A DNA stretch of 64,000 nucleotides from Eledone cirrhosa (lineage: Eukaryota), in the NCBI GenBank assembly GCA_964016885.1, contig OZ024742.1:229214001-229278000 (forward strand). The letters are read 5' to 3'. Within the stretch, counting starts at the first letter, position 1. Each line of letters opens with the position of its first letter. Below the pieces are notes generated by a model. It ran no database searches. It saw only the letters and a program-made list of their open reading frames with translations, and was not told the origin of the DNA. Made by a program: the position numbers and the translations under genes. Below, piece after piece: positions 1 through 58,483 of this stretch.

Positions 1-182
1 ATAGGAAAATGTATGACCCCGACGGCAGAGCTCAAGCCGTTTCGACGGCTATTTATAGCCGTCGAAACGGCTTTAGCTCTGCCGTCGCGGTCAAACATTT
101 TTCTATTGCCCACTCCACTACCCTAAGTATTGAGTACTCTGGTGTGTTATGGTCCATCTCGTTCCTTACCACTCTTCCTTCG

Positions 183-184
<2 letters not shown>
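1..184 (+). mobile_element. Fold-back element family A, copy 1 (PLE pLTR-like; carries the 3' half of a hammerhead)
   Basis: Near-perfect palindrome 1-106 centred at ~53, then a ~78-nt tail running into (TA)n. Contains GAAA-CGGC..GCCG-TC at 64-86. Five other copies in the window. Confidence 0.75.
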
Positions 185-273
<89 letters not shown>

Positions 274-3340: not shown

Positions 3341-4108
3341 AAGTATATGTATTTATGTATACATATTTATACATGTATATACACGGTTTACGAAAGTCAC
3401 TGATGTTATTTCAATGGTCTCCTTCCATGTCTCACTCAATGAGACAATAAGATTACAGCTGTGAAACTGCATCTTGATGTTTAGAGTGCACACATAATAG
3501 TTATATAGTGAGTACAGTGACTATATTTAGGTAAAGATACGTTACGTATTTAGCTCCTAGACGGATTCCATTTCTGTGAAATATTCCACCCAACAACAAT
3601 TATTAAAAGTGTAGTTGTAGAAATTGCGCATTATTAGCATATATTACGCAATTGGGCAATTACACGTCCTCAGCAGGTTAACACCCAACTCAATACATAG
3701 GTCTTTAGTGTGTACATACTAGCGTGTAGTGCTCCGATAATAAATCTGGCAGTCCTACACTATCATGACATGTGACCTCTAAAAATAGAGGAAGTCCATT
3801 ATGTGAGAAAAAACACGTTCTGGTAAATACAAAATATGCAATTCCCGCCAATATAGAAGTCAACCAGTGATACACGCATGTAAATGCTGACTAATAATAC
3901 AAAATCGAACATTCAATATTCAATATATAAACAATACAAAGAAATATGGAAAATCTCTAACCTCTAAACTATATAACATTGAAAAATAGACCAAAGACCC
4001 TTATCTGTTTTCTTATTCGAAAACAATTTCTTTGTAAACTATATATATACATATACATACAATCATATATGTATACATATATATAGTAGTAGAACACTGG
4101 AAGGTAAT

Positions 4109-5134
4109 ATGCGTAGTGGTAGAGCACTCAGTCCATGGGACGAGTTAGGACTTAGGATAACAGTATCTACCAACCTCTCTAGCGTAGATTTCTTAGACAT
4201 TAATTTAGACCTTCGCACACACACCTGCAGACCCTTCCATAAGCTAAACGAAAAACTCAATTACATTCACAAGGACTCATGCCACCCTCCCACTGTTTTT
4301 AGAAACTTCGTAAATAATATCAGTACTAGAACCTCAAACCTCTCCTCTAATAAGGCTATCTTTGACAGGGCGGCACCCTACTATAACACGGCGTTAGCTA
4401 ACAGCGGCTTCTCCCAACCTATCACATACTCTCCCACTATCAACAACAGCAATAAGAAAAGTAAGCGCAACAATAGACAAACTATCTGGTTCTCTCCTCC
4501 TTTCTCACTCAACGTTAAAACCAATCTAGGCAAAACATTTCTAGCCCTCTTAGATAGACACTTTCCCATAGGTCATAAATACCGCTCCATCTTTAACCGA
4601 CACAAAGTAAAACTAGGATATTCCTGCGTTAAGAACATGAAGGCCCACATCACCAACAACCCTAAGATCAACACCCCACCAGAGTGCTCTTACGGTAAGC
4701 CCGAAGCTTGTCCACTTCAACAGCAATGCAACAGACCCGCTGTAGATTATAAAGCTGTGGTCACTTCCAACCGACCAAATCAACCACAGGAGGTCAAATT
4801 CTATGTGGGTGTGGCGGAGGGCCGATTTAAGGAACGCTTCCTGAACCACCAGTCGACCTTTAGGTACCCGGACAGACGTTCATCCACGAAACTCGCGAGC
4901 CACGTATGGTCCCTCAAGGACTCAAGTATAGACTACTCCATTCAATGGAAAGCCATTACTAAGTCCAAGCCATACGCCAGGGGAAATCCTTCGTGTGGAC
5001 TATGTATTGATGAACGAATAAATATTCTAAAGAGATTATGCAATAGCGATTGCCTTAACACGAGAAATGAATTCTTCACACGTTGTCCACACGTCTCGAA
5101 ACACCTCTTACGTAACTACAACTTTCCGAATTAA
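4109..5134 (+). CDS. PLE RT thumb + GIY-YIG endonuclease (N-terminally truncated, open frame)
   Basis: RT motif E VDFLDINLDL; YIHKDSCHPP; IWFSPPFS..KTNLGK.FL.LLDRHFP; Cys linker CSY..PEACPL..QC; GIY-YIG motifs YKA..FYVG..EG.FKERF.NH..TF, LASHVW.LK, CGLC.DE..I and LNTRNE..CPH. Confidence 0.88.
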   Translation: MRSGRALSPWDELGLRITVSTNLSSVDFLDINLDLRTHTCRPFHKLNEKLNYIHKDSCHPPTVFRNFVNNISTRTSNLSSNKAIFDRAAPYYNTALANSGFSQPITYSPTINNSNKKSKRNNRQTIWFSPPFSLNVKTNLGKTFLALLDRHFPIGHKYRSIFNRHKVKLGYSCVKNMKAHITNNPKINTPPECSYGKPEACPLQQQCNRPAVDYKAVVTSNRPNQPQEVKFYVGVAEGRFKERFLNHQSTFRYPDRRSSTKLASHVWSLKDSSIDYSIQWKAITKSKPYARGNPSCGLCIDERINILKRLCNSDCLNTRNEFFTRCPHVSKHLLRNYNFPN

Positions 5135-5439: not shown

Positions 5440-5682
5440 AAAATGAGATTTATCTTAATAAAAAAAGGGAGGTCCTACACGAATGAAAATATAAGGTAAG
5501 GAAATTGAAAATGCAACTGTGGGCTTATTAAGAGTATTTATTTATTTCCTTTACCATCTGCGAGAAAAACCACAAACCCTCCATCTCAATTGTACTTTTG
5601 AAAAGCATAAGAACTGTGAAACCCGTAAAGGAAACAAATAAATAATCTTAATAAGACTCCAGTTGCATTTTCGATTTCTTTT

Positions 5683-5687
<5 letters not shown>
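5437..5687. mobile_element. Fold-back element family B copy with degenerate HHR (5595-5630)
   Basis: Inverted arms GAAAATGCAACTG / CAGTTGCATTTTC between (TA)n tracts. Homologous to 16971-17182 and 18607-18966. Confidence 0.75.
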
Positions 5688-5746
<59 letters not shown>

Positions 5747-5750
<4 letters not shown>

Positions 5751-5922
5751 TCTAATTTTGGCACACGGCCAGCAATTATCCAGTGCATTACTGGTACTTT
5801 ATTTTATCGACCCCGTAAGCATGAAACGCAAAGTTAATCTCGACAGGATTTGAACTCAGATCGTAAAGAGATGTAACCATGCTGGAAAGCATGGCGTCCG
5901 ACCCTCTACCGATATTGCCAAT
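5747..5922 (-). mobile_element. tRNA-derived Meta-type SINE
   Basis: Diagnostic ACTGGTACTTTATTTTATCGACCCCG..GAAA.GCAAAG..GGATTTGAACTC; B box GAGTTCAAATCC on the minus strand. Confidence 0.8.
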
Positions 5923-16734: not shown

Positions 16735-16975
16735 GGCGCGAATATTAATGAACTTGTTCACGTGACAGTCATAATTTCATTAATAACCAATCAAATTACA
16801 TTAATAAAAAAAAAGCTTCGTGAGCCACTTTTTTGAAGTAAAAAGAAATTCAAACAAACTGGCGCGAAATTTATTATACTTATTCACCAACCAATCAAAT
16901 TACTTCTCTAAAAACCTGGCATTTCGAGCCACAATTTTTCTATATAAACAAGTAACATTCAAAGACCAACCAGAT
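16735..16975 (+). promoter_or_regulatory. Putative Pol II promoter inside the PLE 3' region
   Basis: GGCGCGAA at 16735 and GGCGCGAAA at 16861 (E2F-type); CACGTG at 16759; CCAAT at 16787 and 16891; TATATAAA at 16941; CA initiator at 16971-16972. Confidence 0.55.
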
Positions 16976-17176
16976 GTGAGAAAAACCACAGACCCTCCAT
17001 CTCAACTCTACTTTTGAAAAGCAGAAGAACTGCAAAACCGGTAAAAAACCAAATAATTATATATATTAAAAAAAAAAAGACTCCAGGTGCATTTTCGATT
17101 TCATCTTCTTTCCTTATATTTTCACTCGTGTAGGACACCTTGGTTATTTTTCATTTTGTAAAAAAAAATACCTCAC

Positions 17177-18510: not shown

Positions 18511-19004
<494 letters not shown>

Positions 19005-19009
<5 letters not shown>

Positions 19010-21056
19010 CGTAAAATAAGAAAATTATAAAAATTTACTTACTTACTAAAATTTCACTCCAACTAATTAGTTTCTGAAAGGGAATAAACATGGTTTCCGA
19101 TTGGAACAACATGGAGAAATATCCTTTCGTCATCAGGGAGATCTGTTCTCAGCTAAGTTCCCAGGCAAAGCGTGGACACAGGGAACTTATACAAAAATAA
19201 TTCAGTGGATGGAAAAAAGCAAGCGAGGACTAGATTCCAGGACACTGAAAAAATCACTGCCTACTTAGTCGGTGGCGAATTCAAAAGAATCAATCACGTG
19301 ACATCGAGGTCAATCAGTGAGGAGTGAGGGTACTAAAAAGACAATAGCCTGGCTATTACTATGAAGCATAGCAGTAGTTTTGGCAAGTTTTTGCTCAACA
19401 AAATAATTTGGAGATAATTATAAAGAATTAGTATATCTACCAACATATATATACAGATGTATACCTATGCTAGCAAATATATAGGTTTTGTCTTAGTAAC
19501 TTTGAGGTTCAATGCAAGGGGATGCAGAACAATTATATGAAAGACGTAAAATAAGAAAATTATAAAAATTTACTTACTTACTAAAATTTCACTCTAACTA
19601 ATTAGTTTCTGAAAGGGAATAAATATGGTTTCCGATTGGAACAACATGGAGAAATATCCTTTCGTCATCAGGGAGATCTGTTCTCAGCTAAGTTCCCAGG
19701 CAAAGCGTGGACACAGGGAACTTATACAAAAATAATTCAGTGGATGGAAAAAAGCAAGCGAGGACTAGATTCCAGGACACTGAAAAAATCACTGCCTACT
19801 TAGTCGGTGGCGAATTCAAAAGAATCAATCACGTGACATCGAGGTCAATCAGTGAGGAGTGAGGGTACTAAAAAGACAATAGCCTGGCTATTACTATGAA
19901 GCATAGCAGTAGTTTTGGCAAGTTTTTGCTCAACAAAATAATTTGGAGATAATTATAAAGAATTAGTATATCTACCAACATATATATACAGATGTATACC
20001 TATGCTAGCAAATATATAGGTTTTGTCTTAGTAACTTTGAGGTTCAATGCAAGGGGATGCAGAACAATTATATGAAAGACGTAAAATAAGAAAATTATAA
20101 AAATTTACTTACTTACTAAAATTTCACTCTAACTAATTAGTTTCTGAAAGGGAATAAATATGGTTTCCGATTGGAACAACATGGAGAAATATCCTTTCGT
20201 CATCAGGGAGATCTGTTCTCAGCTAAGTTCCCAGGCAAAGCGTGGACACGGGGAACTTAGGTATACGTCTGATGACGAAAGGATATTTATCCATGTTGTT
20301 CCAATCGGAAACCATGTTTATTCCCTTTCAGAAACTAATTAGTTAGAGTGAAATTTTAGTAAGTAAGTAAATTTTTATAATTTTCTTATTTTACGTCTTT
20401 CATATAATTGTTCTGCATCCCCTTGCATTGAACCACAAAGTTACTAAGACAAAACCTATATATTTGCTAGCATAGGTATACATCTGTATATATATGTTGA
20501 TAGATATACTAATTCTTTATAATTATCTCCAAATTATTTTGTTGAGCAAAAACTTGCCAAAACTACTGCTATGCTTCATAGTAATAGCCAGGCTATTGTC
20601 TTTTTAGTACCCTCACTCCTCACTGATTGACCTCGATGTCACGTGATTGATTCTTTTGAATTCGCCACCGACTAAGTAGGCAGTGATTTTTTTCAGTGTC
20701 CTGGAATCTAGTCCTCGCTTGCTTTTTTCCATCCACTGAATTATTTTTGTATAAGTTCCCTGTGTCCACGCTTTGCCTGGGAACTTAGCTGAGAACAGAT
20801 CTCCCTGATGACGAAAGGATATTTCTCCATGTTGTTCCAATCGGAAACCATGTTTATTCCCTTTCAGAAACTAATTAGTTGGAGTGAAATTTTAGTAAGT
20901 AAGTAAATTTTTATAATTTTCTTATTTTACGTCTTTCATATAATTGTTCTGCATCCCCTTGCATTGAACCACAAAGTTACTAAGACAAAACCTATATATT
21001 TGCTAGCATAGGTATATATCTGTATATATATGTTGGTAGATATACTAATTCTTTAT
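19005..21056. mobile_element. Family E: 535-bp HHR-containing tandem array with inversion (retrozyme-like / PLE pLTR array)
   Basis: Units start at 19005, 19540 and 20075. Inversion junction at ~20260-20269; inverted units run to 21056. Near-identical copies with (TA)n flanks. Confidence 0.9.
20801..20884 (+). ncRNA. Type I hammerhead with long stem II (family E); minus-strand copies at 19057-19140, 19592-19675, 20127-20210
   Basis: CTCC-CTGATGA-c[GAAAGGA..CATG..TTCC aatc GGAA..CATG..TCCCTTTC]a-GAAA-CTAATTAG-TT-GGAG. Palindromic stem III AACTAATTAGTT. Confidence 0.7.
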
Positions 21057-21077
21057 ATATATATATATATATATATA

Positions 21078-22181
21078 GTTAGAGAAGCAAAAAATTGCTT
21101 ACTGTGATCCAGTTCTTGGTTAAGAAAGCCAGTTTCATGGATGGTTTCAACTTACGGTTAGGGGTAACTCCACAAGTTTGTAAGAATTCCGTTCAATCTT
21201 GGAGTATAAAGTATAAAAGAGAAAACACAGGTAAGCATTAAGAGAAGGATTTTATCCAGGTATTTACGACCGTTTCATTGGTAAGTGCAACCTTATATTG
21301 CTATACTGCAAAAAGCAGCCACTCAATTATAATTGTTGTTCACAGTCCAAATTTTCAAAATAGTGAGTAAGTTACTCTTGAAATAATTCTTAATATATAG
21401 AGAAAAACATTTATTTGGAATTGTATTTACTAGTATAGAGAGAGAGGAATCAGAAGGTGAGGGGACAAACGGAATAGTATAGAGAGAGAGGAAGGGGGAA
21501 GAGGTAGGAAGTAGAGTGAAAGACTGAGATGGAGGGAGGGGTAGAGGTGGAAGGATTCTTTGGTCAGTTTTGATAGCAGACTTCATGTCGTTGAATGTAG
21601 TGAGTTAAAGAGAATTAAATTGATCATAGTGGGAGGGATGGATATAGAGAGATAGAGGGGGGGGGGGGGGAGATATAAAGAGATAAATATGTATATAAAA
21701 AATAAAGATAAAGATAATAATGACAAAAATAAAAGCAAAGAAGGGGGTGAGAAAGAAGAAAAGAAAAGAGCCAAGAAGGGTATGGAATGAAGGAAGAAAA
21801 CGAAGAAATAGAAGAGGAATGAAGGAGAAGAGGGGGATATATGTATTGGTTTTGTGGGTAATTAAAAGGGTTTAGATACAACAAGAGGGTATAAAGTCTA
21901 AGTATATGCAGTTTGTCAGTTGGTAGTAAGAGGTTAAGGGTTCGATTTGTAGTGCGAAAACTTCTCTTTGAGTCTATGGTTACAATAAATCGATCTTTCG
22001 ATTTTATTGTTACTTAAATATGTGAACAACAATTAAAATTGTGTGGCTGCTATTTGCGTGGCTGCTGTGAACAACAATTATAATTGAGTGGCTGCTATTT
22101 GCAGTATAGCAATATAAGGTTGCACTTACTAATGAAACGGTCGTAAATACCTGGATAAAATCCTTCTCTTAATGCTTACCT
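21078..22181. mobile_element. Family F fold-back element (~117-bp inverted arms around a purine-rich spacer)
   Basis: 21229-21345 is inverted at 22065-22181, with a partial duplicate at 22021-22057. Starts at (TA)n. Confidence 0.7.
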
Positions 22182-23217: not shown

Positions 23218-23425
23218 AACGGAGGAAATGTGGTAAGGAACCAGGTAGACCATAACGCACCAAAGTACTCAATACTTAGGGTAGTAGAGTGGGTAATAGG
23301 AACGAGTAGGACCCCGACGGCTGAGCTCAAGCCGTTTCGACGGCTAATTCTGGACTAAAAATGATTTTTAGTCCAGAATGAGCCGTCGAAACGGCTTGAG
23401 CTCAGCCGTCGGGGTCCTACTCGTT

Positions 23426-23430
<5 letters not shown>
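23218..23430 (-). mobile_element. Fold-back family A, copy 2
   Basis: Palindrome 23296-23430 centred at ~23363. Tail on the left; (TA)n flanks. Confidence 0.85.
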
Positions 23431-25652: not shown

Positions 25653-26862
25653 AAACAAAAAAAAATGAAACGAAATTTCATTTCCCACTCTTAGTACGGC
25701 TGTTACTTAAATATAAGTATGTATACGTACATACATATATGTATACAGACGTATAGTAGTATGTATATATATATACATACATGCACACATATATATATGT
25801 ACGTATGAATTCACCGAACATTTATTATAATGCTCGGTGTATTTGTAAACATACATACCTGTATTAAGCCGTAGTGTCTAGCAACCATCGTTGCTCGTTT
25901 GTTCAACACTGACAAAGGAACGCTGAACTAGTTTCAAGCTTATTAGCTATCGTCAGCAACGTATACCTTCCTGCCAAATGATTGAACGTCTGAAAGTATA
26001 TACTTTCCTTATGTATATTAACAGCTGAGTAGCCCAATTTGCATATCGAGTGGGTTAATCGGCCGGGTGCACCGAAAACGATAAACGGATAAAATGAAAC
26101 GAAATTTCATTTCCCACTCTTAGAACGGCTGTTACTTAAATATAAGTATGTATACGTACATACATATATGTATACAGACGTACAGTAGTATTTATATATA
26201 TATACATACATGCACACATATATATATGTACGTATGGATTCACCGAACATTTATTATAATGCTCGGTGTATTTGTAAACATACATCCCTGTATTAAGCCG
26301 TAGTGTCTAGCAACCATCGTTGCTCGTTTGTTCAACACTGACAAAGGAACACTGTACTAGTTTCAAGCTTATTAGTTATCGTCAGCCACGCATACCTTCC
26401 TGCCAGATGATTGAACGCCTGAAAGTATATACTTTCCTATGCATATTAACGGCTGAGCAGCCTAATTTGAATTTTCGTTTCATACTCTCCGTTTATCGTT
26501 TTCGGTGCACCCGGCCGATTAACCCACTCGATATGCAAATTGGGCTACTCAGCCGTTAATATGCACAAGGAAAGTATATACTTTCAGACGTTCAATCATC
26601 TGGCAGGAAGGTATACGTTGCTGACGATAGCTAATAAGCTTGAAACTAGTACAGCGTTCCTTTGTCAGTGTTGAACAAACGAGCAACGATGGTTGCTAGA
26701 CACTACGGCTTAATACGGGATGTTTGTTTACAAACACACCGAGAATTATAATAAATGTTCGTTGAATCCATACGTACATATATATATATATGTGCATGTA
26801 TGTATATATATATATACATACTACTGTACGTCTGTATACATATATGTATGTACGTATACATA

Positions 26863-26868
<6 letters not shown>
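25653..26868. mobile_element. Family D: ~429-bp HHR tandem repeat (~1.9 units on the minus strand) plus an inverted unit on the plus strand
   Basis: AATGAAACGAAATTTCAT repeats with a 429-bp period. Inversion junction at ~26465-26490. HHRs at 25921-25961 (-), 26350-26390 (-) and 26616-26656 (+). (TA)n flanks. Confidence 0.9.
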
Positions 26869-26920
<52 letters not shown>

Positions 26921-26921
<1 letters not shown>

Positions 26922-27120
26922 GGGAAAAGAGTCAGGACCCGCCGAATGAGTTCCTGCCGTTTCGACAGCTATATCCGAACTGAGTTCGAGTTCGGATCGA
27001 GCTGTCGAAACGGCAGGAACTCAGTCGGCGGGTCCTGACTCTTTTCCTATTACCCACTTTACTACCCTAAGTATCGAGTACTCTGGTGCGTTATGGTCAC
27101 CTAGTTTCTTACCACACTTC
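26921..27120 (+). mobile_element. Fold-back family A, divergent copy 3
   Basis: GGAAAAGAGTCAGGACCCGCCGA..TCGGCGGGTCCTGACTCTTTTCC palindrome followed by the family tail TACCCAC..CCCTAAGTATCGAGTACTCTGGTGCG. Confidence 0.8.
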
Positions 27121-27205
27121 TTTTTTATATATACACACACACATATATATATATTTCTATCTATCAATTATCTATCTATAATCTATCTATCTATTATCCA
27201 TTTAC

Positions 27206-29379: not shown

Positions 29380-32300
29380 AACTCTTTTACATCAACGAGT
29401 TGGAAGAGTGAATGTGCGTGGCCTAGGGATGCCCTGGAAACAGGGCAAACTCTTAAAGGACCTTAGGTCACACGATATAGATGTGATAGCCATCACCGAG
29501 TTCAGGCTCCACAACTGTTAGCAGCTGACCCCCATCTTCGACAACTTTGAGATCTACGAATCTCTCTGTCAGCCAGGAGGTGGAGGAGGAGGAGCTGTCA
29601 TGTTTCGGAAAAACCTGGACATCGAAATACAGCAAGTATATTTGGACCCGGAGGGTCGACTGGTAGTCCTAGACGTGAACAGTGTTGGAGGTGGAGCCTT
29701 CAGACTGGTGGCCGTTTATGCCCCGACAGGGCAATCGCGGCCAGACTTCTTCAAGCGTCTAGAGTCTTTTCTGGGAACGCTCGCTCCTTGCTTTTAGTGG
29801 GTGACTGGAATGGTATCCTAGATGCACGATGGGACTATGTAGATCATGTCCCAGTAGAGCGGGGTGCAACATCTTCAAAACTTTCATCGGCCAATTCCAA
29901 CTGGCCTATAGGTATCGACTGGATTTCCCGACTGCACCACAGTGGACATGGGCAAACAGTAGCGGGACATCTAGATCGTATTTACATAGGTTCTTCATAA
30001 GAGAAAGAGACAAGGCAATGTTAAGCTGTCGATGAATGCACATGGTTGCCTATTCAGATCACAAATTAGTCGTCTGCATAGTAAACCATGATAGTACACA
30101 TAGACAGAGACCCGGATACTGGAAGCTGAACGTGTTGTTGCCGGCACGTAAAGCTTACAGTGAACGGATAAGTAGACTAGTCAAGAAACAGTTGACGGGA
30201 GCCATCGCCAACAATAGATGGTGGTACTCTCTCAAGAAAGCAATTAGAGTAGAATCGATAGGGTTTAGCAGAGTTAGCCTTAGAAGAAAACAAAATAGAA
30301 AGAGAACTAGTAGCCAAGGTAGAGGAGGCACTTAGAAGTGTCAACGCGGCTAGAGTGTTATCGTCGAGAACGGCACTGGACCAGTTCTTCGACGCGAAAC
30401 GCGAAGTCTGCGCGGGCAGAAGCAAAACATGTGCTCTAGGAAACGAAGGAGCGAAAGCTGTCAGCTGTGCCCGAGTGGTGGAGGGAAAAAATGGCAACAA
30501 GTCCAAGATTCGGTCTTTGAATGACCAAAACGGACGCGTGTTACTTGACCCCAAGCACATGTGCGCGGCCTTTCAGCAGCACTTTGCGCGACTGTTTAAG
30601 CAGAACGACGCTGAGCCGAACGGGGCAATGGACTTTAATTCATACCTCAACGGCCTACCGCATCTCTCGAACACAGACGCCGAGTTCTGCGAAAGACCGA
30701 TCACGGACACTAAGGCCGCTGCGGGAAACGCAAGTCACCCGGTCTAGATGGTCTACCCTATGTGTTTTACATAATCATGCCGGTCTTGTTCTCTGTCGCC
30801 CTCGAAGCCGTCTACTGCAATTGGCAGCAGAACGGAAGAATTCCCAGTTCTGCAGGCAAGGGCGTAGCAACGCTGATCAAGAAAGACGAGAACAAGGGGG
30901 ACGAAATTAACAACTTCAAGCCCATAACTCTGCTCAACACAGAGTTAAAGATTTTGGCCACGGGGCTAGCGACGAGGTTGGCGCTTGTTGTCGAGAACCT
31001 GGTAGGGAAAGCGCAAACGTGTGCAATCCCGACTAAGTCCATACACGACAACCACCACCTCATGCGATGCATCATAGAGAGGGTGGGTAGTAAACCCGGC
31101 TTCGGTGGGGCCCTGATCAACTTGGATCAGTCTAAGGCATTCGATAGGGTCGACCATCGATACTTGGAAGCGGTTCTCAAGGCGGCCGGTTTCGGTCCCG
31201 TGTTCAGAGGATGGATCGAGGCGATGCACACCAGCATCTGCTCGAGGGTCAAGGTGAACGGCTACCTATCGGAGCCGTTCGCAATCACTCGTTCCATTCG
31301 ACAGGGGTGCCCTCTCTCCTCAATTCTGTATGTATTTACTCTAGAGCCACTACTACTGAAATTGGAGCTGTTGCAGGGCATGCCTCTAGAACCGAGACTG
31401 CGCAAAGCGGTGTAGACTTATGCCGACGACGTGACGGTAATGGTGTCGAGCACCTCGGAAATTGGGGTGATCGGCAAAAATACTAAAGAATACGAAACGC
31501 TGAGGGGAGCAAAACTAAACTCGGACAAGTCTGTCGGTTTGCATTTCCGTACGTGGAGAGGCAAACCAATGACGTCCGACAGCATCGTTGGATGCTGGAC
31601 GGACGGACCGATGAAATTGCTCGGGGTCTGGTTCGGTCTAGACCTCCAGGTGGAGAAAAACTGGAACGAGTTCACAGCCAAGGTGTTTGCGCTCACCCAC
31701 AAGTGGGCAGAGTGAAAACTGTCCTTGAAATGTCGAGCGGAGGTGGCTAACGCTTTCATAGCGTCCGTCATCTACTACCGCTTGACTGTCGTGCCTTGTC
31801 CCCGTGAAAACCTCGCCAAGATGGAACGCATGCTCTTCCAGTTTCTGTGGAAGAAGCAGGCTCCGCTGGTGAGGAGATCCGTCTGCTGTCAGCACCCTTC
31901 CAACGGAGGGCTGGGAATGCCGTGGCTGATGATGCGCATCTCCAGGTATTCCTCACCGACCCCCAAACGATGTGGGCACCGTTTGTGAGACAGGCTTTCC
32001 CGCAACTTGTTTCGCTGACGGAGCTGCAGTCCTGGGTCAAGAAAAGACCGAAAACTATGGGCGCCTGGCACATTGAATGCGCTCAGGCGCTCACAGTCCT
32101 CTGGCAAGCGAGCACAACAATCAGTGGAGACTCCACTTCGACATTCTATAGAGGGATTCTACGTTACAAGGGCGACGACGTTCTCAGAGAGACTCTGGGC
32201 GTCGAAGATGATGAGCTCACCAGTCTGTTTGGTAGGACTTTCCGCCCGTGACCTATGGACAACTTCAGTGCTACAACAACAGTGCTACCGAGGAGCTCTA

Positions 32301-36915: not shown

Positions 36916-37719
36916 TCATCCCTTGAATCGCAAGAATGTTTTGCAAATTTTGAAGGTGCCAGCTATCGCAGTCATTTGCAGACTATGAATTAGGGAGCTG
37001 CGCTTTTTGTCCGCAAATCCAAGTTCAGTCATACTTTGGTCCAAGCGGGTTGGTATATAACCCGTAGCACCAATAATGATGGGTATGAAGCTAAAAGTGT
37101 ATCTTGGATACTGGATTTGTAAACTCCTCATCAATGGTCCGTAGATGTCCTCCTTCTCCTGTATTTTTCTGACAACGTTTACATCAAGTGGGCAGCTGAT
37201 CTCCACAACAGAACACGTTTTCAATGTGTGGTCCCAAACTACAATATCAGGCCGGTTGTGCTTTAATTTGGTGGCAGTTTTTATTTTCAGGTTCCACCAG
37301 TATTCCTTAGTGCCATCTGTCTCTATATATTCTTCCTCGTTTGTTGTTAATTTTGTTTTCCGAAGTGCGTTCCAGATGGTTCTAGCTATCCCATCGTGTC
37401 TCATGGGGAGGTAGTAGCGAGATGACATTCTTTCGCAGCTGGCAACAATGTGGCTTACATCCTCGATCTTTGTTTTACATAGCCTACATTTATTGTCAGC
37501 TGCTGGCCCTCCTCTTTTGTGCAGCAGATATTTGGTAGGGAGTTCTTGTTCCTGTATTGCATAGAGATATCCCTCAAGGTGTGATGTCATAAACTTGTCG
37601 GAACTCCATGCCAGGCTTTTTGAGTGGTTTATCCCCTCTATGGTCTGTGTTTTACGCCTCAAGTATCCATGCACAACTTTTTCTGTAAATTGGTCAATTT
37701 TCTTATCTTGTTTGAACAT
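36916..37719 (-). CDS. R4/Dong-like non-LTR C-terminus: CCHC zinc finger + PD-(D/E)xK restriction-like endonuclease (5'-truncated, open frame)
   Basis: AIQEQELPTK; CRLC...EDVSHIVASC; RHD; HNRPDIVVWD..VVEISCP.D.N...EK..Y; IPIIIGATG. Confidence 0.88.
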   Translation of the reverse strand: MFKQDKKIDQFTEKVVHGYLRRKTQTIEGINHSKSLAWSSDKFMTSHLEGYLYAIQEQELPTKYLLHKRGGPAADNKCRLCKTKIEDVSHIVASCERMSSRYYLPMRHDGIARTIWNALRKTKLTTNEEEYIETDGTKEYWWNLKIKTATKLKHNRPDIVVWDHTLKTCSVVEISCPLDVNVVRKIQEKEDIYGPLMRSLQIQYPRYTFSFIPIIIGATGYIPTRLDQSMTELGFADKKRSSLIHSLQMTAIAGTFKICKTFLRFKG

Positions 37720-37858
37720 TGAATAGGATCTTCCGATTTCTATGGGTATGTATGTTTGTATGTATGTATGTTTGTTTGTATGTATGTATGTATGTATGCA
37801 TGTTTGTATCTATGTATGTATGTTTGTATGTATGTATGTTTGTATGTATGTATGTATG

Positions 37859-38399: not shown

Positions 38400-39340
38400 G
38401 TATGCCCCTGCCCCTGCTAAGCAGTACAGTGAGCCCAATATCTATGTGTAAGGTAAACGACTTGGAGTGGTTGATCATTTGTCTTCCTGGGAAGCACTGT
38501 CAATCGATACAGCAACCTTGATAATGAAATTCCACTCAGCATTAGGAAAGCAAGTGATGCTTTCGGAAAGCTAGAAAGGCGCCTCTGGGGTTGGCGAGAC
38601 ATATGCAAGAAGAGAAAGGTAAAGGTGTACAAGGCATGTGGGCTCTCTTCTTTTCTTTATGCCTGCGAGACCTGGGTCACATATCGACACCAACTTAAAC
38701 AATTGAAGCGTTTCCATCAGATGTGTTTCAGACGGATCCGTGACGTTCACTGGAGGGACCACATCAGTGATATCGAGATTTTGGAAAGCTCTCTGTGTGA
38801 CAGTATAGAAGCTCTTGTGCTTAAGTAAAGACTCTGTTGGAGTGGTCACCTTGCCAGGAAGAACGGATTCTAGAATACCAAAACAACTCTTTTATGGAGA
38901 GTTAGTTAAAGGAAAACGACCTCCACATAAACCAAAAAAGAGGTATAAGGATTCGTTGAAAGCCTCTTTCAAAGACGCTAACATATCTGCTGATACATGG
39001 GAAAATGTTGCTGCTGATTTTAATAAATGGAGAAAGACTGTATATGAGGGGAAAGTTGCCTTTGAGGCATTTCGAATCGCATACGAGAAAGTAAAGAGGG
39101 ATGTGAGGAAGGGCATTGCTGTTGCACTTCCAGACAGCTAAAGTTCTCCTATAGCGCTGACATGCAGCGGCTGTGCGAGACTCCACCTCAGCAAAGCTGC
39201 ACTCGAAAGTCATCTTAGCAGTCATAAAGTTAACTACCAGGCTGCTGTTGGGGATGCTACTCATCATGCCTGCCAAGCATGTGGTAGAGAATGTAAATCA
39301 GCAGGAGGGCTCAAACGACATGGAAGTTCAGCTACACCCG
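38400..39340 (+). mobile_element. RTE-clade LINE 3' part (RT C-terminus plus C2H2-like finger), degraded
   Basis: KASDAFGKL..RLW; VYKAC..LYACETW..HQ.C.RRI..V.WRD; DSRIPKQLFYGELVKGKR..KPKKRYKDSLK; CQACGRECKS.GGLKRH. Confidence 0.85.
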
Positions 39341-40270
39341 TGTGTTTTAGTGATTTGGGTTGCCTTTTGCTTTTGATGATCTTGTGTGTTTCTAGAATCT
39401 TTTTCATTTTTTTATCTTTAAATAGAATGGGTAGGTTTTTGTGTAGGAGTTCGAACATATCGGTGTTTCTGGGGTTGAACTTGGATACATATGGTAAGGT
39501 ATTATTTGTGGTTCTGGGTTGATGAAAATTTGCGTGTTTTGCGTTGTCTATTCCGTTATTAATTATGTCAAGTGGGGAGGCTCTTAAGGTAAGTATGTTT
39601 TTGAGTTCATTTAGTCTTTGTTCACGTTTAGTTGGGTCCGATACTATGCATATACGTTTGGCTAAATTAAAAGGAATGTTAAGTTTTTTATGTTTTGGGT
39701 GATTTGATGTGAATAGGAGGTACTGTTTGGAGTCCGTGGGTTTATAAAAGATGTCTGTTTTTAGAATGAGAATATCCAAGAAGGCTAATTCCTTGGAGTT
39801 GGATTCCATTGGTAATTGTATATTATTGTTAATGTTGTTAATCATATTTTTGAAAAGAGTGAGTGTATTTATGTCTTCCTGCCATAGTATGAAGAAATCG
39901 TCTATGTATCTCTTCCAATTATTTTTGTGATGTGTAAGGAAAGAGTCTCCGAATAATAGAAGGGATTGGTTGTAGATTTGTTGTTCGTGGAATCCCATGA
40001 CTAAGTTGGCGTATGTGGGGGCTAACTTTGTGCCCATTGCAGTCCCTGAGATTTGACGGTATGTTGAGTCGTTGAAAGTAAAGAAATTATTCTGTAAGAT
40101 AAATCGGAGTCCATCAATAATGAAGTTTTTGTTGATGCGTGTTGGTATTGCAGATTGGTAAGTGTCTAGGCAATACTGGATTGCTGTTATTCCATAGTTA
40201 TGAGGTATATTAGTATAGAGGTTTACTACATCAAAGGAGACAAGAATTGTCTCTCTCATTTTTTCAATAA
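39340..40270 (-). pseudogene. Penelope-like reverse transcriptase core fragment
   Basis: LVSFDVVNLYTNIPH; NNFFTFN..YRQISGTAMGTKLAPTYANLVMG; WKRYIDDFF; AFLDI; YKPTDSKQYL..SNHP.H...NIPFNLA.RI; KRQPKSLK. Confidence 0.9.
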
Positions 40271-40410
40271 TGTCACCTTGACGAATCAAAGAAAGGATAA
40301 AAAAAGAAAAACAGACCCTTAAATATATTTTCTGTGCTATTTCCAACTTCACTTTTCTCTCCCTCTCTCTCTCTCCCCCTCTCTCTCTCTTTATATATAT
40401 ATATATGTGA

Positions 40411-40620
40411 AGGCGTGTGCCTGAGTGGTTAGACAATTGGATTCGCAATCGTAAGGTTGTGAGTTCGATTCCTGGACCAGGCGATGCGTTATGTCCTTGA
40501 GCAAGACACTTTATTTCACGTTGCTCCTTCTACCTGGAGTTGCAACCGATAGATAGTATTAGCAATTGGAAAGACCAACGGAAACATTGTTCCCTCGGTC
40601 CGATTTGACGAAAGTCGATC
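40411..40620 (+). mobile_element. tRNA-derived SINE, second family
   Basis: A box GTGCCTGAGTGG, B box GAGTTCGATTCC, body TGTCCTTGAGCAAGACACTTTATTTCACGTTGCTCC. Confidence 0.8.
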
Positions 40621-51606: not shown

Positions 51607-51763
51607 AAAAGTAATATTCTGTAATAAGATAGTCTATCAAGTCTATCAATATTATGTAATATCGCCAGAGATTCTGAAACTGTTTAAGGAGATAGAATTC
51701 GGGTCTCTACTAGTAAATACGCTATGGTATACGCCGCATAATTTGGCGCTGATATATATATAT

Positions 51764-51928
51764 GAAGAAGTATGACCCCGACGGCAGAGCTCAAGCCGTT
51801 TCGACGGCTATTTCTGGACTAAATATTTATTACCCACACTACTACCCTATTACCCACTCTACTGCCCTAAGTATTGAGTACTTTGGTGCGTTATGGTTCA
51901 TCTGGTTCCTTACCACAATTCCTTCGTT
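51764..51928 (+). mobile_element. Fold-back family A, copy 4 (right arm internally deleted)
   Basis: Left arm GACCCCGACGGCAGAGCTCAAGCCGTTTCGACGGCTA joined to the family tail, whose start is duplicated. Confidence 0.8.
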
Positions 51929-52045: not shown

Positions 52046-52891
<846 letters not shown>

Positions 52892-52969: not shown

Positions 52970-55954
52970 ATACTTGGGGAGGGTCATATTTGTGTAATAT
53001 TGCCAGAATTAATAACAGAACACACTCACTGTTTGGTTGGTTTTCGCTTTTCGCTTCTGTGTCTTTTATATCGGTAATCTAATTTATTCGGTCCTCAATG
53101 TTGCCATTGACTGACCAATGGTCAAAAATAATACAGATACAATATAGACACAAACACATATATATAGTTTATCAAAGTTCTTTCGTTGCACATCTGCAAC
53201 TTCGTCAGTGGTGCTATTGTTTCCTCCCGTTACATTGTATGTCTACGCCATCTTTATTTAGTCTGTTTATATATTTATTTATTTGTTTGTTTGTTTATTT
53301 TATTTTGTCTTCTTTGCGCATGCGTTTTCGTGTGTGATAGCGTTTTGTTTGATGTGTGTTCGTGATTGGGTGACTGTGTATTGGTTAATGTATTCTATCT
53401 TTACTAGTGTGTGTTTATATGTGTTTGTTATTATTGTGCTTGTGTATGTATTTATTTATTTATTTATTTATCTATTTATTTATTTATTTATACTTCTCTT
53501 AGGTCAGTGTTGTTTGTTTGGGTGTTGTTGTTATTCCATTCATTCTTTCTGTTTAGCCTTGGCCTTCTAAGTTCTATTTCACTGGCGTCTCTGATTTGCC
53601 TATCTGCTGGGTCATTTCTATGTTTAGATATTATTCTAATTTCTATGTTGTCTATGTTACCGTTGTGTTGTTGTCTGGCATGTTCGTATAGTACTGACCC
53701 GTTTTTTCGTCCTTTTAGTTCCCCCCAGTGTTGGTCTATCATTTCACCTATGCTACGAGCTGTCTCGCCTATGTATGCTGTTGTCATGTTTCTGCAAGTA
53801 CCCTCTGTACATCTTATGCTATAGACTACGTTTCTAGTTTTACAGTTTATCCGGGGGTTTACCTTACATATGATACATTTCCTATTAGTTCAGTGGGTTT
53901 TCTTAAAAGGGTAGGTTTTGCTGATCAGGGATTTTATGGTGGTTTCTGGCTTTTCTCCCACCTTAATCTTTAAGTGGGTCTTTCTCAGGGCCTTTCTACA
54001 CTGGTTAGCTAATTTCCCTCCAGGGGTAGCGTCCACAAACATGACACTCTGGTATCTCTGGTTGTCGTACCATGAGGTGGCTTTCCCAATCTTATGTCTA
54101 GCCCTATCTAAGCTATTCCATGATTTGCTCCTGTATAATGGGCAAATTCCTTTCATGTCCAGTTGTATGAGGGTCTTATACTTCTCCATGGCTCCTTCGT
54201 ATACTCTGACTCTGTCTCTTTGGTTGTAGCCAGAGAACTGCATGCGGTTGATGAAGTGTTGGCTGTGTCTTTCCATTTCTGTTGGGTCGCATATGCAGGA
54301 CACATTCTTCATCACTCGTACCAAATCTGCGATCAGAATATTAAACTTTGCACTACTGGACATTGCTGAGTTTTTGAGTATCAGGTATTTGGAGGCCATG
54401 GGTTTAGCATAGTGTGAGTGGAGAATTTGGGCTCTCTCGTCTATAGTGTTAATCCAGAGTTCCGTGTCTAATACAGGTAGAATATTGTTAGGGTGTTTTA
54501 AAGGGTAGTCGATAGTTACAGTTATACTCTGGTGTATGGAAATAGCTATCTGCTGGATGCTTTCCATTGTGCTACGTTCTAAATCAAACTTGTTAGTGCT
54601 CTCTAGTGGGGATGTTCTTATAACTATATTGATATCGTCTACGTAACGAGAGTGAATGATGAGGTCTATGGAGCTCTTGTTAAGGAGATCTTTAAGTCTC
54701 CTTTCCCACCATACCATAAAAAGGTTGGCAACATCACCAGCTATGCTGACGGCAATGGCTGCTCCCTCATTTTGGGTGTAGATCTTCTTGTTGAACTTGA
54801 ATATGTGGCCCTTTAGGGTAGTTTTGACACTACCCCCTATTGCATGCGCGACCATTTTTCTTACCTGATCATTGTTTTGGGGGGTCCGTATAGCTTTGGT
54901 CCACCCAATCCACCTTCCCATGGGAGTCTTTTTTGCCATTGAGGTTATGGTGGGGGTCTACCTCTTATGGGTCTACTAGGGCAGAAACGTCTAAGGTCAT
55001 GGCTGTCTAGGTAGTCAGTGTCGTAGGTAAGTCTAAGTAGGAGGCCCAGTTCGTCTGTGTCGACGTCGCAGAAATCCACCTCACTCTCAATGATCATCTC
55101 CACACATTTTTCCACAGCAAAATCAATGTTAATGGATGGGTACAGTGATACCACATCCATGCTGCCTATTATGCAGTTGGATAGGTTCCTGTTTTTGTTG
55201 CACTCACTGATTCTGCTGAGGAGGTCCTCTGTACTGTCACATACATCTGGGGATATCTTGATTATGGGGCGTATAACCATTGAGAGGAAGTAGGAGATCC
55301 TGTAGTTGCTAGCTATATTAGCGCCGCATACGGGTCTTGTTGGTGGTCCTGTTGTCGGGTCGTCGACTGTCTTGTGGTCTTTGCGGAGCCCATACAAGGG
55401 TGGTATGCCATTGTTAGACGCCTGGAAGTTGTTGGCAGTGCGTCTGCTTGGCTTTAGGATGTCGGTCCACATCATCATGTGAGCATTGAGGATTTTCTCT
55501 CTCCCATCATGTGCTTGCTGTGCAATTTCGCTCGTGTTACGGATGTGGGGTTGCATAGCCTTGATGTAGTTCGGCATGCTATCTATTGACACCCTACCAG
55601 ACTTATCCGTGGGTAGACATACTACCTCACCATCCCCTGTGCGCTACTTGAGGCTAAACAAGCTTTCTACAGGTTTCCTCCCAAGTTGTTGGGCCTCTGG
55701 TCTGCTCTGTCTCTTAGTTTACCGGTCTACTATTTGTCTAATCTTATTTCTAGCTATGGTGAACTGTGCCTCTGTCTCGTCATCTATTTGTTGTGGTATG
55801 CAAACTCTTTTATTAAAGGGTAACCTCGTAGGATAGATATTACCCATCTTATATGTTTTGTCAGCTGGGTTGAAAAATAGTACCCCAAGTATAACAATAT
55901 TTGTTTCGACACACGATTTCATATAAAAAACCTCGCAAAACTAATTTATCGCCG

Positions 55955-56026: not shown

Positions 56027-56028
<2 letters not shown>

Positions 56029-56210
56029 CGAAGGAAATGTGGTAAGGAACCAGGTGGACCATAACGCACCAAAGTACTCAATACTTATGGTAGTAGAGTG
56101 GGTAATAGGAACGAGTAGGACCCCAACGGCTGAGCTCAAGCCGTTTCGACGGCTAATTCTGAATTAGCCGTCGAAACGGCTTGATCTCAGCCGTCGGGAT
56201 CCTACTCGTT

Positions 56211-56215
<5 letters not shown>
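56027..56215 (-). mobile_element. Fold-back family A, copy 5
   Basis: Palindrome centred on GCTAATTC-T-GAATTAGC at ~56160. Tail on the left; (TA)n flanks. Confidence 0.85.
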
Positions 56216-58294: not shown

Positions 58295-58483
58295 AACGAA
58301 GGAGATGTGGTAAGGAACCAGATGGACCATAACGCACCAGAGTACTCAATACTTAGGGTAGAAGAGTGGGTAATAGGAAAAAGTATGACCCCGACGGCAG
58401 AGCTGAAGCCGCTTCGACGGCTATTCCAGAAATAGCCGTCGAAACGGCTTGAGCTCTGCCGTCGGGGTCAAACTTTTTCCTAT
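58295..58483 (-). mobile_element. Fold-back family A, copy 6
   Basis: Palindrome centred on GGCTATT-CCAGA-AATAGCC at ~58428. Tail on the left; (TA)n flanks. Confidence 0.85.

Follow-up and report, generated by a model that had tools for sequence, protein, structure and literature searches.

Palindromic half-hammerhead insertions in the Eledone cirrhosa genome turn within loop II and may mark a transcription start inside the ribozyme

Overview

The genome of Eledone cirrhosa carries more than 17,000 palindromic insertions of a repeat, here called family A, whose arms hold the 3′ half of a hammerhead ribozyme fold and meet within the loop of helix II (loop II). The arms have a preferred 5′ edge at one adenine of a conserved TTAGTY motif in this loop, 17-18 nt upstream of the ribozyme GAAA. 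How Penelope-like elements (PLEs) form their inverted ends is described as an open question in the consulted part of PMC8557442. The junctions largely rule out self-priming of the cDNA at stem II. What they favour is two-ended priming, with the cDNAs running off the RNA at a fixed end. We consider it probable, from these DNA junctions, that the RNA end is the transcript start. A start site inside a ribozyme, read from palindrome centres, would be a new and testable detail. If this is true, palindrome centres would provide a promoter map of PLE families from DNA alone.

Family A copies in the 64-kb window

The analysis started from a stretch of 64,000 nucleotides (G000:C3:229214001-229278000; hereafter the window), and the searches covered the 3.0-Gb genome. 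BLAST with positions 1-184 of the window as query detected six copies of family A in the window.

1..53, - strand: copy 1, tail-less inverted arm with the 3′ half of the hammerhead fold; its fixed CCTAT end abuts (TA)n just left of the window
54..106, + strand: copy 1, tail-bearing arm with the stem II 3′ strand, GAAA at 64, stem III, GUC and the stem I 3′ strand
107..184, + strand: copy 1, PLE tail, the 78 nt between two fixed 3′ ends; continues into the reverse transcriptase (RT) ORF in tandem copies
185..216, strand not applicable: (TA)n target microsatellite right of copy 1
23218..23430, - strand: copy 2, centre 23363; both arms extend about 21 nt upstream of GAAA
about 26921..27123, + strand: copy 3 (subfamily B), centre 26985; both arms stop precisely at the A of TTAGTY (-18) and are separated by a 7-nt insertion
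51760..51928, + strand: copy 4, asymmetric, a tail-less arm reaching -23 and a tail-only arm; not a stem II palindrome
56027..56215, - strand: copy 5, centre 56160
58295..58483, - strand: copy 6, centre 58428; upstream of GAAA the tail arm is the shorter (10 vs 16 nt)

Five palindromes, centred at 53.5, 23363, 26985, 56160 and 58428, share one layout: (TA)n, an inverted arm ending in CCTAT, the centre, the second arm, the 78-nt tail and again (TA)n. A sequence-only reading of this stretch had described the arms as the 3′ half of a hammerhead centred about 8-30 nt upstream of GAAA. The arms indeed comprise the stem II 3′ strand, GAAA, stem III, GUC and stem I of a type I fold, and the centres of the five palindromes were measured at 10-25 nt from GAAA. 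The GGC that it had noted in place of GUC in the copy at 26921 is real and occurs in both arms, and the BLAST-found window copies were confirmed to lack a CUGANGA adjoining the stem II strand. That reading had also counted six palindromes folded at stem II. This was correct for five of them, but copy 4 joins a ribozyme-bearing arm to a tail-only arm; the ribozyme half is present only on the tail-less arm, and a short templated insertion accompanies the tail-only arm. The reading did not mention that only one arm has a tail, that the other arm ends at a fixed CCTAT or that (TA)n flanks both sides. An Rfam search of the window gave no hammerhead among the best 150 of 310 matches, none of these 150 being at the gathering score; beside this negative result stands the missing 5′ half of the window copies.

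A Hydra-clade Penelope-like element

Judged by its sequence features, family A is the hammerhead- and tail-bearing end of a Hydra-clade PLE. The tail leads into an RT ORF in locus L042 and in 29 others recovered with it, and the end of a GIY-YIG-type endonuclease (GIY-YIG-like IYQC..YIG) lies upstream of the 3′ ribozyme. LRWR and SDKT occurred together in seven of the eight loci scanned for RT-side motifs, and DKT in all eight; the third residue of the RWK motif is R. The linker has the form CxCx5C, reading CNCPDRSTC in L082 and L316 and CNCSDRYTC in L084. The endonuclease has one C between IY and YIG, contains CNLC..EE and CKH, and lacks CCHH. The target is (TA)n, ATAT following 109 of 115 tail ends. 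A single intact ORF of the parent was not present among the loci found. Neither the parent RT nor the endonuclease was detected by sequence searches against Pfam and PDB, and a search of the ESM Atlas with the parent RT returned clusters bearing PF26215 at 0.94-0.98, one of which is named as an RT.

The Hydra clade is defined, in the consulted part of PMC8557442, by RWK, DKT for DKG, CxCx5C, no CCHH, and CxxC/CxH beside E and N; a CUGANGA hammerhead in the Hydra pLTR is given there as an observation and not as part of the definition. As far as the same part describes the clade (Craig et al. 2021, PMC8557442), family A has in common with it the C-terminal GIY-YIG, RW[K/R], DKT, CxCx5C, the lack of CCHH, CxxC/CxH round E and N, the (TA)n target, a hammerhead in the pLTR, an inverted 5′-truncated arm and a one-sided tail. 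However, the Hydra hammerheads of its File S2 are all CUGANGA, with a loop II of 3-10 nt and short stems III, whereas in family A the core is U3-A8, loop II spans about 32 nt and stem III has 5 bp. Its 78-nt tail likewise exceeds the 30-40 nt given there for Hydra-clade PLEs. A keyword search of the supplement, within the portion consulted, did not find the family A motifs.

The U3-A8 core has been described in Schistosoma Cercyon elements, where the consulted part of the report also gives G10.1-C11.1 and a long helix II, both common to family A (Cervera and de la Pena 2014, PMC4209133). Opposite-strand motif pairs 100-700 bp apart are described there for PLE hammerheads, as in family A. Those motifs are minimal and without a stable helix III in that account, whereas helix III of family A has 5 bp and most of its copies contain only half of the motif. 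The inverted arms, the tails, (TA)n targeting, Hydra membership and the U3-A8 variant are thus features already known.

Two other assignments were rejected. A Neptune/Nematis PLE requires a CX2-5CxxC linker and CCHH, whereas here the linker is CxCx5C and CCHH is absent. A non-LTR retrozyme, defined in the consulted part of bioRxiv 10.64898/2026.07.22.740005, consists of non-coding tandem units each with a whole hammerhead, whereas the family A copies are dispersed single palindromes with half of the motif and have a coding parent.

The un-inverted parent and its hammerhead fold

An un-inverted parent of family A was found at locus L028, one of 30 BLAST loci, which runs upstream without inversion. 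With L028 as query, 30 loci were recovered, each containing an ACCCC-like segment, a TTGAAAA-like core, GTT, CGGCTATTT, a loop of about 32 nt, AAATAGCCG, TC and GAAA, with point variants. The sequence-only reading had predicted parents with GACCCC-CTGANGA. Un-inverted parents do exist and have both stem I (ACCCC/GGGGT) and a 5′ strand of stem II with covariation between subfamilies, but their core is UUGAnAA with U3-A8. A CUGANGA core within 30 nt of the stem II 3′ strand was searched for and rejected: of 42 matches genome-wide, the 20 inspected were not parents but chance sequence at junctions, or places where another family is joined on. For subfamily B, the stem II 5′ strand was predicted from the divergent window copy before the search, which then gave 216 exact matches and none for the control.

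When 20 parent copies were aligned, 90% of the cells were paired, three stem II pairs changed on both sides and U3-A8 was found in 17 copies; these rows had been chosen by patterns forcing part of stem II, so that the counts lean towards structure. Among 90 parent arms, T3 was present in 77 and A6, A8 and A9 in 87-88 (A8 in 88). Core positions 5, 6, 8 and 9 hold in the parent arms while position 7 varies (A 43, T 25, C 13, G 9). The parent sequence has three helices round the core, the 3-8 pair, G10.1-C11.1 and an NUH site, the criteria of a type I hammerhead. As predicted from sequence, the parent motif is a type I fold with a compensated U3-A8 core. One group of parents (L181, L219, L226 and L323) combines C3 with A8 (CTGAGAA); although this mismatch would be expected to weaken the 3-8 pair, it recurs at several loci.

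The cleavage site was also considered as the main turning point of the palindromes. This was rejected, since only 22 palindromes centred near it were found genome-wide for one common subtype, and no cluster was seen there among 56 tail-anchored arms, in the walk of which at least five of 22 "early" rows are indel artefacts. About six of the 22 palindromes, by eye, have both arms starting exactly at the site together with inserted bases. In a few palindromes, L303 among them, both arms begin at the base after GUC and inserted bases lie between them, a hint that self-cleaved RNA may serve as a rare template.

Position of the turning point

Exact-pattern searches of the genome found 15,251 palindromes in which 0-30 nt separate the stem II 3′ strands and 1,926 in which 31-61 nt do so, 17,177 in total, while the reversed control pattern had no match. 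Read-through arms that reach the stem II 5′ strand numbered 2,223 under an exact pattern. About 94% of the pattern-matched arms thus end inside loop II, a figure that is approximate because the patterns differ in length. The expectation from the sequence-only reading that the centres would be clustered and not random was therefore borne out.

Arm ends were located in 198 arms, drawn from 95 fixed-position 10-kb stretches plus the window (1.01 Mb), from 40 regions with the first palindromes listed on C1 and from 29 BLAST loci. The most frequent ends were -17 (n = 27), -12 (n = 26) and -18 (n = 21); ends thinned upstream, and three of the 198 arms reached 45 nt or more. Possession of stem II was a selection criterion in two of the three samples, as were short spacers in the C1 sample; in the unselected 1.01-Mb sample, 13 of 47 arms ended at -17/-18. 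The edge is blurred by side peaks at -21 and -25 (10 arms each) and by another at -14/-15. In our reading, part of the -21 and -25 peaks may come from arms that by chance match the partner arm a little further, and trimming may account for the peaks closer to GAAA. In 72 of 91 parent arms, positions -20..-14 read TTAGTCC or TTAGTTC, the remaining loop being divergent, and the arm edge at 17-18 nt upstream of GAAA corresponds to the A (-18) of this conserved TTAGTY.

The same region was found as an end in long copies. Of 30 ORF-bearing copies, six end at -13 to -18, one at -27 and two at 0 to -6, and eight are without the ribozyme half; none ends between -28 and -79. The other 13, one of which is the query, end at -80 or beyond, that is, 80 nt or more upstream, which shows that read-through templates exist too. 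Contigs from one DNA run, perhaps of the assembled animal, contained opposite-strand joints of family A, and nine of their 18 distinct joints had one side at L307:1410-1414, where the A is position 1411.

A second TA-inserted family is present in the window:

18604..18904 (also 5489-5690 and 16973-17119): repeat of this second family, whose arms contain an intact minimal hammerhead motif with U3-A8

Genome-wide, 1,754 palindromes of this second family turn at a fixed A of their own, about 42 nt upstream of the intact U3-A8 motif. Among 50 that were listed, none extended by more than two bases beyond the A of CCAGATG, as judged by eye. Since this family turns outside its ribozyme, a fixed turning point needs no ribozyme stem. 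A third family (window 52049-52876; L089, L164 and L198) has a canonical CUGAAGA hammerhead motif, and its arms often begin just upstream of AAAATGG; this start-codon-like context also fits an edge at a start site.

Arms, tails and joints

A tail count in 113 palindromes, which include copy 1 of the window twice (once as L001), gave one tail in 106, two in four and none in three. In the 106 palindromes with one tail, the tail arm exceeded its partner in 41, fell short of it in 47 and matched it in length in 18 (p = 0.59 for no bias). One fixed 3′ end lies after the tail and the other at CCTAT, and each shares TAT with the (TA)n target. Both arms belonged to the same subtype in 61 of 70 pairs, against 13% expected by chance; this fits one template copied twice and is also a prediction of fold-back. 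Junctions had an overlap of 0-3 nt in 52 of 110 cases, or insertions, which were often templated. In L061, L063, L068, L076 and L080, arms of family A are fused to other hammerhead-bearing families or to ORF DNA, which suggests mixed-template insertions.

A start-site model for the palindromes

We propose that two cDNAs are primed in (TA)n at the two fixed sites, run off at a transcript start in loop II and are joined head to head; on the sequence evidence, we regard this as the probable origin of the palindromes. The parent has the full predicted fold with its U3-A8 core, followed by the 78-nt tail leading into the RT ORF, and in each insertion one arm runs to the end of the tail while the other stops at CCTAT. 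By analogy with Poseidon, the element protein would cut (TA)n and prime a cDNA on each DNA end, at both sites. Poseidon (PAc) of the green anole cut and extended both strands in vitro, with two internal RT starts and with uncleaved RNA as the dominant template, according to the consulted part of Frangieh et al. 2024 (PMC11167929). The two RT starts given there bound the tail, as the two fixed ends do in family A. PAc starts RT without homology to the cut DNA, whereas both ends of family A share TAT with (TA)n (PMC11167929, same part); the joining point of inverted arms is not a subject there.

The A of TTAGTY at the arm edge would then be the transcription start: family A turns inside loop II because its transcript likely starts there. 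If so, RT primed at the 5′ repeat copy would run only about 60-140 nt before falling off the RNA end. The two cDNA ends would be trimmed and joined head to head through 0-3 nt of microhomology or through short templated insertions. The initiator consensus is YYANWYY, and TTAGTCC and TTAGTTC fit it. A downstream promoter element at +28..+32 was not clearly seen by eye. A G such as a cap might add was present in 16 of 24 unexplained junctions, or in 14 of 20 at -18 after four rows from CUGANGA-selected loci were dropped; the base in the first 100 genome-wide arms, counted by hand, was G in 44, C in 48 and A in eight, and the second family is without such a G. A splice acceptor (TTTAG) as the cause of the edge was rejected, since the AG is itself part of the arms and is not followed by a constant upstream exon.

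A start inside the repeat has a precedent. Penelope of Drosophila virilis has an internal, TATA-less promoter in its pLTR and a start inside the pLTR, as given in the consulted part of Schostak et al. 2008 (PMC2377424). That start was mapped on RNA and is followed by an intron, whereas the start of family A is deduced from DNA and would lie inside the ribozyme fold (PMC2377424, same part).

With a start at this A, RNA made from the promoter would begin with half a ribozyme, and the whole fold would be present only in read-through RNA and at the 3′ end of the element. As an extension of the model, to which we give an even chance, a start in mid-ribozyme would act as a switch between a template with an uncleavable half-hammerhead and cleavable read-through or 3′-end RNA; the centres would mark the start to the base, and most PLE insertions in this genome would be run-offs primed near the mRNA 5′ end. 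Such a start, if real, would account for the rarity of cleaved RNA as a template.

Alternative origins of the palindromes

The sequence-only reading had attributed the palindromes to cDNA that snaps back at stem II and self-primes the second arm. In a general form, a single cDNA would fold on stem II or on 1-3 nt of microhomology, self-prime the second arm and then be cut at CCTAT. The centres adjoin stem II, many of them can be drawn as small hairpins, and the shared subtype of the arms (61/70) would follow. A fold on stem II, however, is possible only once the cDNA has copied the 5′ strand at about -50, and the palindrome would then keep the native loop at its centre. The arms stop before this strand, and the native loop was absent from all three matches to the strict pattern for such a product. 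If the tail arm served as template, as in any fold-back, it should never be the shorter, yet it is the shorter in 47 of 88 unequal pairs. In copy 4 of the window and in L082, each arm holds sequence missing from the other, and some arms of family A adjoin ORF pieces or another family. At 27 of 65 centres the asymmetric core measures 2 nt or less; this is weak evidence against folding, as a wider loop can be drawn. Fold-back on stem II is largely refuted, and we consider fold-back of any kind very improbable. The short palindromes could also be a non-autonomous family, transcribed and re-inserted whole from a few master copies, as their very high copy number and the recurrence of some centres (up to four of 65 identical) would allow. 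We hold this to be improbable as well, because the centres are highly varied, the same centre recurs in different subfamilies, the side of the tail is independent of arm length and the long ORF-bearing copies have the same edge.

The remaining alternative keeps the two-ended priming and places the cause of the 5′ edge elsewhere, in a roadblock to RT or a cut of RNA or DNA within loop II, due to a bound protein, a contact between loop I and loop II, a helix IIb or a nuclease site. In subfamily A the edge lies 2-3 nt into a weak 6-bp helix predicted in loop II, the extra-G counts at the junctions are mixed (14/20 vs G 44, C 48, A 8), and the Poseidon ribozyme folds with the help of its protein in the consulted part of PMC11167929. 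RT would, however, have passed the stronger stems I, III and II before reaching such a helix. Loop II of subfamily B folds differently, and its arms stop at the same A all the same (copy 3 of the window, L157 and L169); the edge of the second family, moreover, lies outside its ribozyme. We regard a roadblock or cut as unlikely, at roughly one chance in a handful, and run-off at a transcript start in loop II as the preferred reading.

Significance and other elements of the window

A link between PLE palindrome centres and transcription start was not found in the literature, in a search mostly outside subscription papers. In addition, the family A insertions supply a great many near-perfect hairpins. 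For octopus, the consulted part of PMC5625713 describes hyper-editing and an unusually high proportion of loci that form dsRNA.

The window contains further repeats. An ORF fragment of another Hydra-like PLE (3983-5134, +) shows 40% identity over 161 aa to the RT end of the family A parent. Retroelement fragments at 30714-31415 (+), 39264-40529 (-), 36916-37809 (-) and 53890-55643 (-) include RVT_1 matches, one zf-RVT and a PLE-like RT pair without a Pfam match. Larger nested inverted repeats at 18999-21098 and 25708-26872, with arms 94-100% identical, are probably further two-armed insertions. Finally, an abundant short repeat lies at 5743-5832 and in 11 other places, and we take it to resemble an octopus SINE.
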